A DNA stretch of 64,000 nucleotides from Euprymna scolopes (Eukaryota). A model generated the notes under the pieces. It had not been told where the DNA came from, searched no databases, and worked only from the letters and a program-made list of their open reading frames with translations. How positions within the stretch are numbered: the stretch's first letter is position 1; the number at the start of each line of letters is the position of its first letter. Shown piece after piece: positions 2,432 through 55,322 of the stretch. The translations under genes and the position numbers were made by a program. The stretch lies in the NCBI GenBank assembly GCA_053919585.1, contig JBSSHM010000097.1; one strand, given 5' to 3'.

Positions 2432-3514
2432 ATGCTTTATCAACTGACTCAATGGATAGCTGAATATAACAGTGATTTTTCAGTGTTTCAGTATCTCACG
2501 CTAAGAGCTATTTTAGCCACGATTAGTGCCTTAATTATTTCTTTTATTTTAGGTCCATGGACGATACGAAAATTATCGTATTTACGTTTCAATCAATCTA
2601 TTCGTGATGATGGTCCAAAAACTCATCTTGAGAAACACGGCACGCCAACAATGGGTGGTGTGTTAATTATTAGCTCCATTACTTTATCTTCATTAATGTG
2701 GACAAATTTATCCAATATCTACTATTGGATTGCCCTTGGGGTTACAGTGGGATTTGCTGTCGTTGGTTTTATAGATGATTGGTTGAAAATTAAACATAAT
2801 AATTCAAAAGGGATATCAGCTGCACAAAAATACATCTCTTTATCAGTTATTGCACTGACTGCCGCATGTGTACTTTATTTTCTTGCTGATATACCGGAGA
2901 AAACTAATTTATTAATTCCTTATACTAAAGATATTATCATTCCTATTGGAATAGTGTTTATCCCTTTGGCATATTTTGTGATGTTAGGAGCAAGTAATGG
3001 AGTGAACTTAACGGATGGTTTAGATGGACTGGCTATTCTACCAACCGTCATGATTGCGAGTGCATTAGCTGTTTTTGCTTATGTTAGTGGACATTTTCAT
3101 TTTTCAGGATACTTGTTACTTCCATTTATTCAAGGCAATGGAGAGTTGGTTATTTTTTGTAGTGCTATTATTGGTGCAGGTTTAGGATTTTTATGGTTTA
3201 ATGCCTATCCTGCTCAAATGTTTATGGGGGATGTTGGTGCATTAGGACTCGGAGGTGCTTTAGGTATTGTTGCGGTGATTGTGCGTCAAGAATTGGTATT
3301 TTTTATTATGGCAGGTATATTTGTCATTGAGACACTTTCTGTCATGTTGCAAGTAGGGAGTTATAAACTACGTGGTAAGCGGCTTTTTCTGATGGCGCCA
3401 ATACATCACCATTTTGAATTGAAGGGATGGGCTGAGCCAAAAATTATTGTGCGTTTTTGGATTATTACGTTAATTCTTGTATTAATTGGTTTAGCAAGCT
3501 TGAAAATTCGATGA
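2432..3514 (+). CDS. mraY: phospho-MurNAc-pentapeptide transferase MraY
   Basis: [34 protein letters not shown]; 360 aa polytopic membrane protein. Confidence 0.97.
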
Positions 3515-3520
3515 AAATTC

Positions 3521-4660
3521 ATGGGAATAGAATGGGTTAGGAAAATACAAAATTTACTGAAAGATGGGTTGGTGCTTGTTTTGGTGACAGTGGTAAAAAC
3601 CAGAGGTTCTACACCTTGTGGCAGTGGCAGTAAGCTTCTTTCTTTTTATGAGACGGAAAACAGTCAATATCCCACTTTGTGGGGCAGTATTGGTGGGGGG
3701 ATGATTGAATACGAAGTTTGCCAGTATGCAAAGAAGATGCTGGAGAAATTTCGTTATCAGAGCATCGCCTATCATTTACATCAACACACGTATCATGTTC
3801 ATGCTGAAAGTGGACAATGTTGTGGTGGAGAGGTGGTAATAAGCTTTGAATTTATTACAGCAAAATATCCTCATAGGGAATGGATAGATAATCTTATTGC
3901 TTGTTACCATCAACAACAGGATGTTTATATTTTTAGCATCCGTATAGGGAATGAAAATACGTTTAAACAGGCATGTAGCGAGCGTATGCTGGCATCATTA
4001 CAATCACAAGTTAGTGAATTGCTTGATAGTAGTAATAGTGAAAAGGGTTTTATCCAACAAGTTAGTAAAAAAATCAAGGCTATTAAAGGGAAGCATCATC
4101 AAGGATTTTGTTTACATGATGCTAACAAAGACATGGTGATTGCTGTTGAGAAAATTTCTTATAGTCAGATTCAGTCAGTGTGTTTATTTGGTTCTGGGCA
4201 TATTGCTCGGGCATTAGTGCCGATTATTTCATCTTTACCTATCAAGGTGTATTGGGTAGATGATCGAGCGAGTGAATTTGAATTATTTTCACATAATCAT
4301 GCCTATTATTCAGCAGATAATGTGCATATTTTATGTCAAGATTTTTTATCGCTAGATATTCCTAAAAATGCATATTGTTTGGTGATTACCTATAGTCATA
4401 AAAAGGATTATGAGATATGTAAGCACATATTATCAACTTCTCAACCTAGTTATTTAGGATTAATTGGTTCTCGGACTAAAGCCAAACGCTTTTATAAATT
4501 CTTACAAGAGGAAAGTGTTGTTAATGAGAATGCTATTGAACAATTACAGTGTCCGATAGGGGAAAAATATCAAACACAAAAATCACCTGTTGCTATTGCA
4601 ATTTCTATTGCTAGTCATTTACTAAAAAAAATAGATGACAACATCGCTTCTTCAACTTAA
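3521..4660 (+). CDS. xdhC: xanthine dehydrogenase accessory protein XdhC
   Basis: GSTP, GSIGGG.IE, GQCCGG, FGSGHIA, TYSH..D, YLGLIGS.TK, CPIG motifs. Confidence 0.88.
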   Translation: MGIEWVRKIQNLLKDGLVLVLVTVVKTRGSTPCGSGSKLLSFYETENSQYPTLWGSIGGGMIEYEVCQYAKKMLEKFRYQSIAYHLHQHTYHVHAESGQCCGGEVVISFEFITAKYPHREWIDNLIACYHQQQDVYIFSIRIGNENTFKQACSERMLASLQSQVSELLDSSNSEKGFIQQVSKKIKAIKGKHHQGFCLHDANKDMVIAVEKISYSQIQSVCLFGSGHIARALVPIISSLPIKVYWVDDRASEFELFSHNHAYYSADNVHILCQDFLSLDIPKNAYCLVITYSHKKDYEICKHILSTSQPSYLGLIGSRTKAKRFYKFLQEESVVNENAIEQLQCPIGEKYQTQKSPVAIAISIASHLLKKIDDNIASST

Positions 4661-6179
4661 TTGTATTACTAAGTCTTACGGTAACCTTGTCGCTAACAGT
4701 GAGATTAGCTTAAATATTTATGCCGGGAGCATCCATGCCCTGCTTGGTGAAAATGGGGCAGGAAAAAGCACATTAGTTAATATTATTTATGGTTTAGTTA
4801 TTCCAGATAGTGGTGAGATATGGTGGGAGGGTCAACAGGTAGGTATACATTCACCTGTGAAGGCACGAGAGCTTGGTATTGGTATTGTTTTTCAGCATTT
4901 TGCATTATTTTCAGCACTGACGATTTTGGAAAACATTGCACTGGGTATTGACTATAGGGGGAGTATGGGTTCTTTAGAGAAATTGGTGCAAGAAATTATT
5001 GTTGGATATAAGTTAGAGGTAGTGGATTTACATCAGAGAGTTAGTGAGCTTTCTGTTGGAGAAAAGCAACGAGTTGAGATTATTCGTTGTTTGATGCAGC
5101 AACCTAAATTATTAATTTTGGATGAGCCAACTTCGGTATTGACGCCAAGAGAAGTTGCACAATTATTTGAGACTTTGGAAATACTTAAGAATCAGGGTTG
5201 TGCAATCATCGTGATTGGACATAAGTTAGATGAAATTAAAGCAGTATGTGAAACAGCAACCATTATTCGCAAAGGTAAGTGGATTGCAGAGTGTTGCTTA
5301 AAGGAGACGAATACAAATGAGTTGGCAGAAATGATGATAGGTAATCGCATTGCCGAGATTAGAGAGAAAAAGAGAGATGGTAGGAAAAATGTGGTGTTGC
5401 AATTTAATTATCATGGGGCAGTGGATTTCTCAAAAAAAGAAAAAAAAGGCCTTAATTATTCTCACCAATTACAGCTTAAAAGTGGAATGATTACCGGCTT
5501 AGTTGGTATTGCTGGTAATGGGCAAGATCAATTAATGAGTTATTTATCAGGGGAGGTGACTGGTGAAAAAGAGAGTATTCAATATTGGAATGGGCAAAAA
5601 AAATCTGCTTCATCAAGTCAAGCCTATCAAGGGGATTTTATTGGTGAATTAGGTATTATTGAGCGTAAGAAACAAGGGATTGTTTTTGTTCCTACAGAGC
5701 GTTTAGGTCGTTCAGCTGTGATGCAAATGAATTTGATGGAAAATGCTTTTTTTGGTGTTTCTGATGCTAAGAAATATTGTCATTATGGTTTAATGGATGA
5801 GCAGAAAATCAGTGAATTAAGCGAGAACATTGTTGAGCAATATAATGTGCATCCATCTAATAAAGAGGGGTCGATAAGTCATTTGTCAGGTGGTAATTTA
5901 CAAAAATATATTGTTGGGAGGGCAATGCTTCAAGATCCTAAAGTATTACTCATCTCTAATCCAACATGGGGAGTGGATATAAGCTCTGCAACGTTTATTC
6001 GTAATCGTTTGATTCAACTTCGTGATAGTGGTGCGGCAATTTTAATTGCCTCAGAAGATTTGGATGAGATATTTGCCGTGTGTGATGAAATGGTAGTGAT
6101 TAAAAAAAACCAGTTAAGTGATGTGCAACCTATTGAAAATGTAAGTATCAAGCAGATTGCTATGATGATGGTGTCATAA
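4635..6179 (+). CDS. sugar/nucleoside (probably purine) ABC transporter ATP-binding protein, two ABC domains
   Basis: GENGAGKS, LSVGEKQRVEI, LILDEPT, LSGGNLQK, PTWGVD; overlaps xdhC. Confidence 0.88.
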   Translation: MTTSLLQLNCITKSYGNLVANSEISLNIYAGSIHALLGENGAGKSTLVNIIYGLVIPDSGEIWWEGQQVGIHSPVKARELGIGIVFQHFALFSALTILENIALGIDYRGSMGSLEKLVQEIIVGYKLEVVDLHQRVSELSVGEKQRVEIIRCLMQQPKLLILDEPTSVLTPREVAQLFETLEILKNQGCAIIVIGHKLDEIKAVCETATIIRKGKWIAECCLKETNTNELAEMMIGNRIAEIREKKRDGRKNVVLQFNYHGAVDFSKKEKKGLNYSHQLQLKSGMITGLVGIAGNGQDQLMSYLSGEVTGEKESIQYWNGQKKSASSSQAYQGDFIGELGIIERKKQGIVFVPTERLGRSAVMQMNLMENAFFGVSDAKKYCHYGLMDEQKISELSENIVEQYNVHPSNKEGSISHLSGGNLQKYIVGRAMLQDPKVLLISNPTWGVDISSATFIRNRLIQLRDSGAAILIASEDLDEIFAVCDEMVVIKKNQLSDVQPIENVSIKQIAMMMVS

Positions 6180-49607: not shown

Positions 49608-49697
49608 ATATAAAAAATTTTCAATTATCACCTGTTTTATAGAAGCGGTGAATTTTTATTGAAAAAACACATGATAAAAAACTAAGATGAGAGTTTA

Positions 49698-49807
49698 TGG
49701 TAGAGGTCGGAATTGAAACAAAACGATAAATGTTTGATTTTAATCATTTTTTAATTTATCAATTCAGACGTAGAGCACCAAATGTAGCACCATACCCTTA
49801 AAGCACC
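49698..49807. other. putative integrase attachment site (displaced tmRNA/tRNA 3' fragment + IHF site + arm repeats)
   Basis: - strand TTCAATTCCGACCTCTACCA (49717-49698); AATCAAACATTTA matching WATCAANNNNTTR (49739-49727); AGCACC at 49774, 49786 and 49802. Confidence 0.6.
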
Positions 49808-49911
49808 CTAAATTGAACCATATCCAGCCCTTCTTTACAATTATATGGTAGTGTGCCCTTCCATAAAAATTTCACTTCCTGCGGAGAAATCTCACAACTG
49901 TCTGAAACAAG

Positions 49912-50352
49912 TTATTTTAGTATCCAGTAGCAATAGACTTTCTCACTTTTTCTAGGAAAACTCCCGTATTGGTCTCGTATCTGTCCTTTTTGCACCACGG
50001 TATAATGCCCGTGTACAAGAACTATAGCGTCTGATTGTATCTTTAATATTTCATGAAAACTGGTATCGCTATCATTGTAGAGGAATCGCTTGAAAACATC
50101 CAAGTATTTGAGCATAATATTAAATTCTTTATTAGTTACTCCTCTATTCGGCCATGCATCTTCTGTGCATAGCCTAAACGCTTCGTTTAATTCTTGAAAA
50201 GTAAACTCTGGAAGAACTTGATAAAGAGCACACAATGCACAGCTATGAGGAGAAGAGCGTATCTGTTTTAGTGTTTCTTCGTATTTACTCGTTTTCTGAG
50301 GAAAGAAAAAAGCAAGGATTTTATTAAAAAATTGCTTAAATGCTTGTATCAT
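49912..50352 (-). CDS. putative papain-fold/C39-like cysteine peptidase
   Basis: SCALCAL (Cys at helix start) ... GVT..E ... AIVLVHGHYTVV (His) ... IRD (Asp) in C39-like order and spacing. Confidence 0.55.
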   Translation of the reverse strand: MIQAFKQFFNKILAFFFPQKTSKYEETLKQIRSSPHSCALCALYQVLPEFTFQELNEAFRLCTEDAWPNRGVTNKEFNIMLKYLDVFKRFLYNDSDTSFHEILKIQSDAIVLVHGHYTVVQKGQIRDQYGSFPRKSEKVYCYWILK

Positions 50353-50447
50353 TTTGACTTGAAAAAAAATTTTATTTCCTTATATTTATGTTAATCAATA
50401 TGATTGCTAAAGTCAATTTTATCTTAACCTAGTACATCACTTAACTT

Positions 50448-50912
50448 ATGAGCTATTTCACAATATACATCTCCGATGATAAAGGGAATCAAAACTACAG
50501 ATGGAACCTGAAAGATGATAATCATAAGATTATCGCACATTCAGAAGAACCATTCCACAGAGAAAATGCATTAAAGTCTGTTGAGAAAATGCAGTGTCAT
50601 GTAAAGCAAGAGACTGAAATTTGTTTAGAGTCTGAATCAACTGACACCTCTAAATACAGATTTGAATATCGTCAAAGTGAAAAAGATGAACAATGGTATT
50701 GGACTTTGAAGGCTGGTGGGAATCATGAACCAATGGCAATTGGTGAGGGTTATGTGTCTAAATCTAACGTCATTGAAGGTTTGGAAAATGTAAGACTTGA
50801 GATTTCTCGTGCTGAAATTAAGTTTGAATCACCTGAAGACCAAAAATGGTATAAGGCTTTTTTGATAAGAAGAGAAGATACGACTGAAACAAAAGGTATT
50901 CCTGGCTCCTAA
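50448..50912 (+). CDS. tandem YegP/DUF1508 protein with ~30-aa C-terminal extension ending KGIPGS
   Basis: Two repeats: YRWNLK..NHKIIA.SE.F....A.K.VE and WYWTLKA..NHE.MA.GEGY.SK.N...G.E.VR. Confidence 0.8.
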   Translation: MSYFTIYISDDKGNQNYRWNLKDDNHKIIAHSEEPFHRENALKSVEKMQCHVKQETEICLESESTDTSKYRFEYRQSEKDEQWYWTLKAGGNHEPMAIGEGYVSKSNVIEGLENVRLEISRAEIKFESPEDQKWYKAFLIRREDTTETKGIPGS

Positions 50913-50929
50913 AGGTAATTTAAATTATT

Positions 50930-51313
50930 ATGGAGGTCGAAAAGATTCTCATAGAACGAGGAATAGAATATTGTATTCCTGATACTGCCGATATTCCCTC
51001 CGATATTTCTGATACGGTAATTATTATTCAAAATTACAAACCCTTGAACATTGAAGCTCATCATCCATTTATAAACATTGCGTTAGCTGTCAAATCTAAT
51101 AGCACTTTTTCACCTAAAACTTGGCTGAATTACACGCCAGAAAAAATTCAACAAATAGATGGAAGTGCTCCGAAACCGCATCCTGACTATAAAGAATTTA
51201 TCTTTCATGATTTGAAATACTTTCCTTATTCCATTGGTGTTCAAGGCTTTGGCTTTGCAAATGTGGTAAATCTATTAGATAGTTTATATTGTCATATCAA
51301 CTTTGATTCATGA
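50930..51313 (+). CDS. divergent prokaryotic E2-like protein (Prok-E2_E-like)
   Basis: Pattern L.ERG..., VIIIQNY, INIALAV, P..I..IDG..P, F....Y.PYS matches by eye the recalled Prok-E2_E order (wviirdY, diai.i, P.L...dG..P, f.G..wq.wS); ATGA-coupled to the E1 gene. Confidence 0.45.
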   Translation: MEVEKILIERGIEYCIPDTADIPSDISDTVIIIQNYKPLNIEAHHPFINIALAVKSNSTFSPKTWLNYTPEKIQQIDGSAPKPHPDYKEFIFHDLKYFPYSIGVQGFGFANVVNLLDSLYCHINFDS

Positions 51314-52011
51314 GTGAACTCATTTCAAGAGTAAAAAAAATCTTAGATAAAAAAATTCTAGAGTGTATCTCAGAGAAGACCTTTATAGTGTTGGGATGTG
51401 GTGGTGTAGGTGCAAATTTTGCTGAAAGTCTTGTGAGAACTGGTGCAAAAAATTTGGTACTTGTTGATTATGATAAAGTTGAAAAAGCAAACTTAAATAG
51501 GTATTTCTCAGAAGAGCATATAGGCAAGAAGAAAGTTGAGGCTTTGTCTGATATTCTGAAAAAAATTAACAAAGAGATTGAAGTAAAAACTCATCCTTAT
51601 GCTGTGAAGCATTTAAGGACATCTGACTTAGTTCAAAAAGAGATACATGATAATATACGAAACAGCGATGTATGCATCATGGCAATGGATAAGAATGATG
51701 CGAGAATCAATGCTGAAAAATCACTCAATGAGTATAAATATTTTATCAGTATAGGGGTACAAATCAATCGTTTTGATGATTACAACTATCAAGTCAGTTG
51801 GGGACTGAAAACTCCTGAGAGTGCTGGTGAAGAGGAAGGATATGGTGAGGCTAATGGTTCACTCCATGCTATAGTACAAGAAGCTTCAAACACGGCATTT
51901 AATATGATGCTAAACAATCTATATAACCCTGAAAATGGCAGAAAGGAAATAAAGTCTATATATAGGGAGTATAAAAACAATACATTTACTCAAAAAGTAG
52001 ATTATTATTAA
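51310..52011 (+). CDS. ThiF/MoeB/E1-family adenylyltransferase lacking Zn-binding CxxC motifs
   Basis: LGCGGVG, VDYD.VE..NLNR, IG.KK, MD...AR; no CxxC. Confidence 0.9.
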   Translation: MSELISRVKKILDKKILECISEKTFIVLGCGGVGANFAESLVRTGAKNLVLVDYDKVEKANLNRYFSEEHIGKKKVEALSDILKKINKEIEVKTHPYAVKHLRTSDLVQKEIHDNIRNSDVCIMAMDKNDARINAEKSLNEYKYFISIGVQINRFDDYNYQVSWGLKTPESAGEEEGYGEANGSLHAIVQEASNTAFNMMLNNLYNPENGRKEIKSIYREYKNNTFTQKVDYY

Positions 52012-52075
52012 AAATAAGGCTGAAGTTTCACAAACTCCATGCCTCATTTTCATGCTTTGGCGAACCCTTTACCCA

Positions 52076-52718: not shown

Positions 52719-53099
52719 ATGAAAACAGCACAGGAAGAAAACAACACTTTGAAAACCAAGCTCCAAGAAATGCTTGAACTGGAAAAAGAAACACTCAAAC
52801 GGGAAGTTATTGAGGAAGCATTAGACTATGATTCAGATGATGATATTAAATGCTTCTTCAGTGATTTGCTCCAGCATGGATGCGTTTCTGGCATGGTTGG
52901 TAAGCTTATTTACTACACAGATACTCATACTTTCTACGACAAGCACTACCATGAGATTGAAGAACTCAGGATTGAGTATCTGGAAAATGTCGGTGAAGCT
53001 CTCAATGTCGGAGACCGAGACTGGAAAAACACGCTTGCATGGTTCGGGTTTGAAGAAACTGCGTATCGGTTAGCAGGCGAGTTGGGCTTAGGGGTTTAG
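52719..53099 (+). CDS. small acidic MGE-associated protein (DUF7222-like), possible DNA mimic
   Basis: Strong RBS (GAGGAG); HGC.SG....LIYY.DT..FY..H..EI and KN.LAW..FEE motifs; about 28 D/E vs 13 K/R (hand count). Confidence 0.7.
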   Translation: MKTAQEENNTLKTKLQEMLELEKETLKREVIEEALDYDSDDDIKCFFSDLLQHGCVSGMVGKLIYYTDTHTFYDKHYHEIEELRIEYLENVGEALNVGDRDWKNTLAWFGFEETAYRLAGELGLGV

Positions 53100-53111: not shown

Positions 53112-53133
53112 AAGGGAGCTTCGGCTCCCTTTT
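53112..53133. terminator. probable bidirectional intrinsic terminator
   Basis: AAGGGAGC-TTCG-GCTCCCTT plus T run, between convergent genes. Confidence 0.85.
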
Positions 53134-53617
53134 ACACTTGATAAATCACAGAACCATGCTCAATCACATATTTCAATGGAATTTTTGGATTATTGATGTC
53201 TTTGCCACCATCCGCATGCCACTTTTCCTCCCATTTTTTGTAGTAAGGATCAAGATTTTCAGGCGAAAGTTGGTGTATTGACAATAACTTGATGCCCTCA
53301 TAAACAGCAAAAACCCAATCAACTTGACGATACTTTTTAATAATCGTAGGATTCATGTGATGATGAGTGGAGAAACTCTTTGTAAGCAAGGTATTGACAG
53401 ACTTTAGCTCATACTCTTTTCCATTAGAATCTTTTGCATCATTACCCTCTCTGCCTGGCAAAATCTCTAAACCAGTGAGGAGAAGGACTTGAAGCAACTT
53501 TCCCCCATTGTCTTGAAAAATATCATTAATTCCATGCTTGTCAGCAAGTTCTTGTAGCCTGATGATGTTTGGATATATTGTGTTGAAAATATCTATATCA
53601 GGATGAGTTTTCTTCAT
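53132..53617 (-). CDS. type II restriction endonuclease, PvuII-like (predicted site CAGCTG)
   Basis: Near-identical to recalled R.PvuII segments: [53 protein letters not shown]. Confidence 0.93.
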
Positions 53618-53843
53618 TCAATAATTCCTTGAGAGGTGTTTCTAGTGCTATTGCTAAACGTTCCATGTTGTCTATGGAAACATTTCTCTCACTACGTTCA
53701 ATAGAACCAACGTAGGTTCGATGAAGACCCGAAAGTTCAGCTAATTTCTCTTGAGATATTCCCTTCAACAGGCGAACCCTCTTGATATTCTTAGCAAATA
53801 AAAATCTAGTCTTATGTAAATCTGAAGACTTTTTGTCAAACAT
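53598..53843 (-). CDS. controller (C) protein of the R-M system, XRE HTH
   Basis: [30 protein letters not shown]; overlaps and precedes the REase. Confidence 0.92.
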
Positions 53844-53869
53844 AAGGTTATAATTTTCATATTGATGAT

Positions 53870-53895
53870 GACTTTATGTCTACAGACTATAAGTA
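53870..53895 (-). promoter_or_regulatory. C-box operator pair
   Basis: - strand TACTTATAGTC-TGTA-GACATAAAGTC, matching the GACTnnnAGTC-TGTA-GACTnnnAGTC PvuII-type arrangement. Confidence 0.85.
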
Positions 53896-53900
53896 GCACT

Positions 53901-54932
53901 ATGACCTCTCTTAGTAAAAAAATAGATACGCTTTCAAGCTCCATATTGATTAAGCCATCGTACTGTACCGATTTTGGACAGGCATACTATGGTGATTCTC
54001 TCGATTTGTTAGACCAACTACCAAACAACAGCGTGAATCTCGTTATGACCAGTCCTCCCTTTGCCTTGCAACGAAAGAAAGAATATGGGAATACGAATCA
54101 GAATGAGTATGTTGCTTGGTTAGCTCAGTTTGCGGAACGGGTATATAAAAAGCTCACTGATAACGGGAGCTTTGTTTTAGATTTAGGTGGAGCGTACAGA
54201 AAAGGAGTGCCCACAAGAAGTCTCTATAATTTTCGGGTATTGATGCACTTTTGTGATGAAATAGGTTTTTTTCTAGCAGAGGATTTCTATTGGTATAACC
54301 CATCCAAACTTCCCAGCCCCATAGAGTGGGTAAATAAACGAAAAATTCGAGCGAAAGACTCTGTGAATACTGTGTGGTGGTTTAGTAAGACTGAATATCC
54401 AAAAGCGAATATTTCTAATGTCTTAACGGAATACAGTGAACGAATGAAGAAACTGCTTGCGAATCCAGAAAAATTTTATGATCCTATGAAACGACCGTCA
54501 GGACATACGATAGGTGCTAGTTTTGGCAAAGACAACAAGGGAGCAATTCCCTCAAATTTACTCCAAATACCAAACTCTGAATCCAATGGAAACTATATGT
54601 CTGGCTGTAAATCCATTAACGCAAAAAGACATCCCGCCCGCTTTCCAGCAAAACTTCCCGAATTTTTCATTAAGTTTCTCACTGACCCTAATGATATTGT
54701 GTTGGATATTTTTTCTGGTTCTAATACCACGGGCTTTGTTGCAGAAAAACATAAACGCCAATGGTTGGCTTTTGATAATGAGATTGACTATGTAGCAACT
54801 TCAGCTTTCAGATTTTTAGACAAAGAAACAAGTATTGAATATCTTCGTAATGTTTATGAGGGCATTAAAAGCGGTAACCGAATTGATTTAACACAAGAAG
54901 AGATGACTCGACAAAAACAACTTCTTGGTTAA
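53901..54932 (+). CDS. N4-cytosine DNA methyltransferase, M.PvuII-like (beta class; likely start 53901)
   Basis: MTSPPFAL.R.KEYGN (motif IV), NPSKLPSPIEWVNKRKIR.KDSVNTVWW, HPARFP.KLPEFFI, DIFSGSNTTG; divergent from C/R. Confidence 0.93.
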   Translation: MTSLSKKIDTLSSSILIKPSYCTDFGQAYYGDSLDLLDQLPNNSVNLVMTSPPFALQRKKEYGNTNQNEYVAWLAQFAERVYKKLTDNGSFVLDLGGAYRKGVPTRSLYNFRVLMHFCDEIGFFLAEDFYWYNPSKLPSPIEWVNKRKIRAKDSVNTVWWFSKTEYPKANISNVLTEYSERMKKLLANPEKFYDPMKRPSGHTIGASFGKDNKGAIPSNLLQIPNSESNGNYMSGCKSINAKRHPARFPAKLPEFFIKFLTDPNDIVLDIFSGSNTTGFVAEKHKRQWLAFDNEIDYVATSAFRFLDKETSIEYLRNVYEGIKSGNRIDLTQEEMTRQKQLLG

Positions 54933-55322
54933 GTAACTTTTTGAAAATTTTGCTTTTTAACAATTATGGATATTATTGAAAATGAATTTAGTTTTTAACT
55001 TGAAAAATATGAAACAGTATTTTTGGTACTTCTTCGCCTTAAAAGGAGAAATGTCATGATTAAGATTTTTCTTGCACACTGTAGCATTATTGGTTGTTTG
55101 ATACGCAGTTCCAGCAATTTATTCAATGTTTGCAATAGATATTGCCGTCCTTATGCTAAAAAGTGGATATTATTGAATAATAGATCTTTTGATAAATATC
55201 CTAACTATAGTGGCAATATTATTTTATCTTACTTGAAGTATCGCCACTTTCTCAAAAAGAATAGGAACCCTTGGACTATCGTATTTTACATTCATACTGT
55301 TATTCATTCCACTCGTGAATAT

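Follow-up and report, generated by a model that had tools for sequence, protein, structure and literature searches.

The closest described relatives of the locus analyzed here are bacterial ubiquitin-like conjugation systems. In Bub, the E1 enzymes use a tyrosine in the crossover loop and the E2 enzymes a serine, as reported in the preprint of Ye et al. (10.1101/2024.11.21.623953). The tag protein of type II Bub, BubA, ends with serine in all four cases of Table S2 of Gong et al. (10.1101/2024.11.21.623966), and the same is true for the three type II BubA proteins that we fetched (L021, L022, and L023); ends such as TDKS, TNRS, and TGQS occur among these seven of seven. A search of the main text of the Ye preprint for “C-terminal serine” gave no result. 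E. coli BubA, which Table S2 lists as Ser-ended, forms an apparent conjugate in vitro. For seven type II BubA, encoded in seven operons, Gong et al. describe a tandem of DUF1508 domains as the N-terminal part of the protein. In Bil, another bacterial conjugation system, some tag precursors are trimmed (10.1101/2023.09.04.556158; PMC10557695). According to PMC6363468, the sites cleaved by C39 proteases end with Gly-Gly, Gly-Ala, or Gly-Ser.

The window, i.e. the whole stretch of 64,000 nt that was analyzed, is a bacterial contig within a 5.9-Gb assembly. It contains a cassette of four genes. The gene for the candidate tag (50448..50912, plus strand) is separated by 17 nt from the gene of an E2-like (UBC-fold) protein of 127 aa (50930..51313, plus strand), which has a candidate catalytic Ser101 (codon 51230-51232) and Lys63 nearby in sequence. 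The latter gene overlaps by 4 nt with that of a stand-alone ThiF/E1 adenylation enzyme of 233 aa (51310..52011, plus strand; Pfam ThiF, E 1e-26), with a candidate catalytic Tyr178 (codon 51841-51843) in a GYG motif. Upstream of the tag gene, and divergently transcribed, lies the gene for a C39/papain-fold cysteine peptidase of 146 aa (49912..50352, minus strand).

We consider it likely that these four genes encode a Bub-like conjugation module with Tyr/Ser oxyester chemistry, the tag of which lacks a beta-grasp fold. Despite its non-ubiquitin shape, the tag is probably attached to other proteins, because the four-gene module resembles machinery for ubiquitin attachment. The E1 would use ATP to adenylate the C-terminus of the tailed DUF1508 protein, and, by analogy to Bub, the acyl group would be passed as an oxyester to Tyr178 of the E1 and further to Ser101 of the E2. 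The E2 would then transfer the tag to amines of targets, probably lysines, without an E3. The peptidase would cut after Gly-Ser, freeing the tag from tag-E2 fusions and from extended forms, and it would probably also strip the tag from targets. Observed directly are the order of the genes, the modelled folds, the conserved residues, and the junctions of the fusions. The first-pass annotation of the locus had anticipated the conserved tail and the conjugated payload, whereas the E2, the peptidase, and the Tyr/Ser chemistry were missing from it.

The tag protein has 154 aa and ends with TKGIPGS, followed by TAA. DUF1508 was found twice in it (Pfam, E 1.4e-17), and 28 aa (residues 127-154) follow the last repeat, encoded at 50826..50909 on the plus strand, with the Gly-Ser codons at 50904-50909 and the stop at 50910-50912. 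This agrees in domain matches, tail, and end string with the earlier description of a YegP/DUF1508 tandem with an added tail. The tail had also been described as an extended Gly/Pro stretch, which is correct for its end, but the remainder is a charged linker with the consensus ENPEDDPAxxAKxxD. A length of 28 residues is below that needed for a beta-grasp. No ubiquitin-like Pfam domain matched the tag, and the idea of a shrunken beta-grasp was rejected because the tail is too short, acidic, and proline-ended.

To describe the tail in homologs, a profile search was used that retrieved 49 proteins; six of the eight rows of the query alignment were tailed, and therefore tailed matches are favored in this set. 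A tail is present in 36 of the 49 proteins, all of which have G-S or G-A at the end point. The protein stops directly after G-S in 25 cases, including the tag of the window, and directly after G-A in one; five proteins have one to six further residues after G-S, and in another five G-S runs on into an E2-family domain. A stop right at this point thus characterizes 26 of the 36 tailed homologs, and an end at the Gly was seen in 0 of 36. The Gly is followed by Ser in 35 proteins and by Ala in one, and the position behind the Ser is free to vary. The tail length was 25-29 aa in 25 of the 26 stop-ended homologs measured, and in all 30 rows that had been chosen for having a tail, Gly153 is the only tail position that never varies. 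Based on the frequencies of G and S in the ORFs of the window, the chance of a G-S end is 0.0046, compared with the 25 G-S-stop ends among 49. The 13 proteins without tail are five distant, ordinary YegP-like matches and eight close homologs, one of which has a Gly end, but is about 20 residues short and lacks the tail motif. Conservation of the tail in homologs linked to E1 and E2 genes, as proposed earlier for ThiF-linked ones, is supported, and the DUF1508 pair is likely to be the payload. In one homolog, P0065 (403 aa), a single G-S tail comes after three DUF1508 pairs that are nearly identical, representing a recent payload expansion or an assembly artefact.

The peptidase was modelled with a pLDDT of 85, and its best fold matches are the C39 domains of PCAT1, LahT, and ComA. 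The comparisons with the PCAT/ComA C39 domains gave Z values of 8.2-8.6, with an rmsd of 2.6-3.0 over 102-110 residues. Proteases of the UfSP and ZUFSP types were also among the fold matches (Z 6.2-6.8). Cys38, His116, and Asp127 are invariant in the peptidases of all three loci at which the gene was found, and the predicted structure combines a C39 fold with a Cys-His-Asp set. An amphipathic N-terminal helix is likewise present in three of three (shuffle P 0.003-0.024), and in each of four BubE proteins checked the top-ranked amphipathic segment was terminal. Pfam gave no C39 match for the peptidase, and the matches in the Atlas were unnamed phage clusters (0.93).

Within the conjugation reading, the mature end of the tag is probably Gly-Ser, with the Ser being activated directly rather than removed, and the window's tag would therefore need no trimming. 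The Ser is favored because most tailed homologs stop after it and none at the Gly, because the residue that follows it is free, and because type II BubA is Ser-ended in all seven cases and C39 proteases cut after Gly-Ser (PMC6363468). The first-pass annotation had left both routes open; direct activation agrees better with the observations than exposure of the Gly by trimming does. The other route is a variant of the same conjugation system, in which the peptidase cuts between Gly and Ser and Gly153 is activated. It is in line with Gly153 being the sole invariant residue of the tail-selected rows, it has precedents in the trimming of E. aridi BilA between Gly and Ala and in the cleavage of BubAB after Gly (both described in the Bil and Bub preprints), and UfSP- and ZUFSP-type proteases are among the fold matches. 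Nevertheless, Gly-ended tailed homologs were not found, the top fold matches of the peptidase are double-Gly-motif proteases, and the next residue is almost always Ser, whereas the extensions of type II BilA have been reported to be non-conserved. Activation of Gly153 is somewhat less probable than that of the Ser.

The E1 has intact nucleotide-binding motifs. Its only Cys residues are at positions 19, 30, and 122, and thus it has neither a Cys in the crossover loop nor a Zn-binding CxxC. The GYG of the crossover loop with Tyr178 is kept in 12 of 12 E1 relatives, and the crossover loop printed for Citrobacter BubCD also reads GY, but in HH profile alignments Tyr178 did not coincide with the Tyr of BubD. 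A quickly built tree places the 12 E1s in a group of their own (SH-aLRT 92) that is nested in neither Bub type I nor type II; the deep branches of this tree lack resolution. Besides the 12 E1s, it contained two type I and four type II Bub rows, two other ThiF rows, and a single Cap2-like one, and six further ThiF rows had been dropped by a motif filter. Pathways of sulfur-carrier ThiF/MoeB proteins involve a Gly-Gly-ended ThiS or MoaD partner and Zn-binding CxxC motifs. The positions of the three Cys, together with NCBIfam ThiF/MoeB scores that were all under the cut-off, led us to reject membership in such a pathway. In PADLOC, the ThiF domain alone matches E1-E2 models, and tag, E2, and peptidase match nothing.

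The AlphaFold model of the E2-like protein has a pLDDT of 95. Citrobacter BubB was the best match both with Foldseek (E 0.069, prob 0.98, TM 0.53) and with VIA-align (Z 7.1, rmsd 4.0, 109 residues aligned; next 5.4), where many UBC/RWD folds follow below BubB and a Z of 7.1 lies within the range that the tool calls common. According to the model, the 127-aa protein is folded like the serine E2 BubB. Searches of Pfam, PADLOC, NCBIfam, and PDB sequences with the protein gave no match, and those in the Atlas gave only unnamed phage clusters below 0.9. An HH comparison of the family with BubB was negative: For type I, the score of 11.9 stayed below the highest score of shuffled controls (16.1), and type II gave a probability of <1%. 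Searching a representative library with the E2 yielded 44 matches, among them three proteins fused to a tag, one fused to an E1, one with two E2 domains in tandem, and one false match to a repeat protein. Ser101, W65, and Y87 are invariant in 37 of 37 single-domain rows, and Lys63 is present in 34 of them. When the register was set by eye against the printed BubAB, Ser101 fell on S333 of BubB and Lys63 on D299. The BubB-type His at Ser+2 is found in only one of the 37 rows, and a Lys occupies the Asp position.

A Cys64 in a K-C-W motif, found in 28 of the 37 E2 homologs, might suggest thioester chemistry via this residue, with structural roles for Tyr178 and Ser101. However, the E2 of the window (Thr64) and eight others lack Cys64, whereas Ser101 is present in all 37, and the E1 has no loop Cys. 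We regard thioester chemistry as the least probable of the readings weighed here.

RiPP clusters of the MccB type have a short precursor peptide and an exporter. The tag is a folded precursor of 154 aa, and no exporter was among the neighbors scanned, so that the cassette was not assigned to this class; a leader-core arrangement was rejected as well, since most members have no core. More generally, the E1 could add a small group to the tail, by MccB-like adenylation or as a thiocarboxylate, lipid, or metabolite, the E2-fold protein being a scaffold and no protein-protein conjugate being formed. MccB and UBA5 indeed rank high among the solved E1 relatives found by sequence, with BubCD far below, the E2 lacks the His of BubB, and C39 domains are typical of RiPP pathways (PMC6363468). 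On the other hand, the Ser of the E2 and the Tyr of the E1 are invariant, the E1 has no Zn-binding CxxC or crossover Cys, most tailed homologs have nothing after G-S or G-A and therefore no core peptide, and no exporter was recognised beside the cassette at the three loci. A small-group modification is thus quite improbable, and we disfavor the MccB-like alternative of the first-pass annotation, since an E2-fold gene invariably accompanies the tag gene as neighbor or fusion partner and exporters were not recognised next to the cassette.

Tag and E2 are fused in nine proteins (five from the tag profile search and four from other searches), and G-S is found at the junction in nine of nine; the split between tag and E2 is always directly after the Ser. 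A tree of the tag region, built from 39 tailed and four plain rows without the six-repeat P0065 and the near-duplicate P0110, implies about six changes between the fused and the split state, at least four of which are forced by starred branches. Near-identical proteins occur in opposite states, i.e. the window's tag versus P0068, and P0073 and P0112 versus P0113. One protein, P0012, is an E2-E1 fusion. P0017 has two E2-family domains in tandem.

The DNA context of the cassette was compared between the window, L005 (a metagenome contig), and L006 (a MAG of the Bdellovibrionales). These three loci have in common the gene order tag-E2-E1 and the peptidase. L005 and L006 each have a 35-38% identical peptidase ORF, which lies on the opposite strand downstream and overlaps the end of the E1 gene. 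The peptidase is thus on the opposite strand at all three loci, but its side differs between them, which argues against the Bub-like reading. At L006 (205-9826), the cassette lies among what we take to be genes of a type IV secretion or conjugation system (VirB4-like ATPase, pilin-like). In 401 genomes of the phylum of L006, searches with E2, DUF1508, and the intact peptidase each matched the L006 locus only, a result that is for the peptidase partly due to construction, because the L006 peptidase was in the model. A scan with the E1 motif yielded one locus in metagenomes and one in genomes. No match was obtained in metagenome contigs or plasmids searched with the E2, or in phages searched with the peptidase. 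Viral contigs gave no relatives with the E1 alone, the tag alignment, or the peptidase alignment, and the E1 alignment gave three partial ThiF matches. The cassette was not described in the literature searched, which included the work of Ye et al. in its preprint form.

The rarity of the family and the presence of tail-less proteins among the close homologs would be compatible with a decayed or chance cluster, the tail of which has no role. However, proteins that are only 30-50% identical still share the tail end, the gene order, and the fusions, which makes this explanation very unlikely. The module is real, conserved, and rare.

As a small control, five plasmid loci encoding YegP were taken from 11 tblastn records and three records of another search. 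The tail is absent in three of three YegP proteins without ThiF in the stretch and present in two of two encoded directly upstream of a ThiF gene, although their ends, GRFA and GRYA, are of a type unlike the Gly-Ser tail. In the latter two, L025 (3001-5740 of NZ_CP087140.1) and L027 (about 2968-5607 of NZ_CP099557.1), the tailed DUF1508 tandem lies upstream of Cap2-like E2-E1 and Cap3-like JAB genes. No CD-NTase is annotated within the two stretches. The E2-E1 gene of L025 is split in two, and genes for a heme peroxidase and an HTH/ImmA pair are located upstream. The GRFA and GRYA tails resemble the end of the E. cloacae CD-NTase printed in Ledvina et al. (10.1101/2022.03.31.486616), and at these two loci YegP seems to have been coupled to conjugation machinery a second time. 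On a Marinobacter plasmid (L028, 1639-3327), the gene for a tail-less YegP and a WYL-domain gene point away from each other, with a Y-family polymerase gene close by, which is in line with DNA-damage regulation.

The cassette of the window lies at the margin of an island that also carries T4SS coupling genes and a restriction-modification set of the PvuII type. The adjoining region 53132-54932 encodes a PvuII-type restriction endonuclease, a controller HTH protein, and an N4/N6 methylase. At 55023-58840, the island contains a gene for a TbpB-like beta-barrel surface protein and, next in order, one for a Slam exporter. A DUF7222 gene (52719-53099) suggests a multi-copy or widely shared element, because its contig depth is about 5-10x that of the cassette in related runs. 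A strain that is about 98.5% alike is represented by one 2396-bp contig, which corresponds to 49708-52065 of the window with 35 differing letters, is limited to the four cassette genes, and has a left flank unlike that of the window. Near-identical DNA is present in two coral-metagenome runs from one study, and a record from a 2396-bp contig contains a protein of 154 aa with exactly the sequence of the window's tag; the coral run with the near-identical cassette may be related to the source sample. At 49696-49720 (minus strand), where the contig of the related strain diverges, the sequence is similar to the 3′-end of a tRNA (a T-arm-like stretch, then ACCA), and this is possibly the left attachment site of the island; ARAGORN called no tRNA gene there. 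A promoter scan remained at chance level, and a search for flanking repeats revealed none that was convincing.

The biological role is the least certain point; phage defence or a stress response on a mobile island has an even chance of being correct. In PMC13373217, yegP is reported to follow capK-capS regulators in 57 cases, and according to the same source, protection against phage has yet to be demonstrated for Bub.

If the conjugation reading is true, ubiquitin-style conjugation without Cys exists beyond Bub, a tag can be recognised via a short tail alone that is Ser- rather than Gly-ended, and a C39-fold protease serves as the processing and removing enzyme, a task performed by JAB or BubE in the published bacterial systems compared, as they are described in the sources used here. 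The widespread, uncharacterised YegP/DUF1508 family would obtain a testable function, and with four proteins of 127-233 aa, reconstitution of the system should be easy. Tentatively, and with slightly less than even chances, we propose that the DUF1508 tandem is a true modifier without ubiquitin fold that has been hitched to conjugation in three separate ways, i.e. by a beta-grasp in type II Bub (as published), by a GR[FY]A tail resembling that of CD-NTases next to Cap2/Cap3-like genes on two plasmids, and by a Gly-Ser tail with a third E1-E2 lineage, which is Cys-free and uses Tyr and Ser, and a C39 deconjugase. Attachment of YegP domains would then be a recurring bacterial device for defence or stress and offer a handle on YegP function.

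The cassette shares several features with Bub as described by Ye et al. (10.1101/2024.11.21.623953), namely an E1 with no crossover Cys and a conserved Tyr that may correspond to the one of Bub, an E2 fold with an invariant Ser, fusions of tag and E2 (like BubAB) and of E2 and E1 (P0012, like BubBD), a Ser-ended tag as in type II, and an amphipathic terminal helix, which is found in BubE and here in the peptidase. In contrast to the Bub systems described there, it has no beta-grasp, no DUF6527/BubE, and no JAB, but a C39-fold cysteine peptidase instead, and therefore it is not a member of Bub. A search for bubE/DUF6527 gave no match in the assembly of the window or the genome of L006, whereas the same search matched nine of the 401 genomes, seven of them over the cut-off. 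Furthermore, the E2 has no detectable sequence homology to BubB and lacks the His of S-x-H, and the E1s form a separate group. Type I Bub is characterized by a JAB-E1 fusion and an E2 Ser-x-His with Asp, whereas the cassette has a stand-alone E1 and neither E2 feature.

The DUF1508-Ubl1 BubA proteins of Gong et al. (10.1101/2024.11.21.623966) are similar to the tag in that a tandem DUF1508 is part of a conjugated protein with a C-terminal Ser; they have a beta-grasp after the repeats, whereas only a tail of 25-29 aa follows here. C39 double-glycine-motif peptidases (PMC6363468) are alike in fold, in the Cys-His-Asp set, and in the candidate Gly-Ser site, but the C39 domains described there are fused to an ABC exporter, and the peptidase of the cassette stands alone. 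With Bil (Hor et al. 10.1101/2023.09.04.556158; Chambers et al. PMC10557695) the cassette has in common separate genes for tag, E2, E1, and peptidase. Bil, as described in these sources, differs by a Gly-ended beta-grasp tag, Cys chemistry with an E1 CYS domain, and a JAB peptidase, and the cassette was not assigned to it, as its tag has no beta-grasp and it lacks the E1 Cys domain and the JAB peptidase. In type II CBASS, Cap2 activates a non-ubiquitin substrate via a disordered, conserved C-terminal tail (Ledvina et al. 10.1101/2022.03.31.486616), as is proposed here for the DUF1508 tag. CBASS membership was rejected, with the ThiF domain as the only PADLOC match, and type II CBASS as described there differs from the cassette by its thioester chemistry on Cys, its fused E2-E1, its protease of the JAB type, and its substrate, which is an enzyme (CD-NTase).
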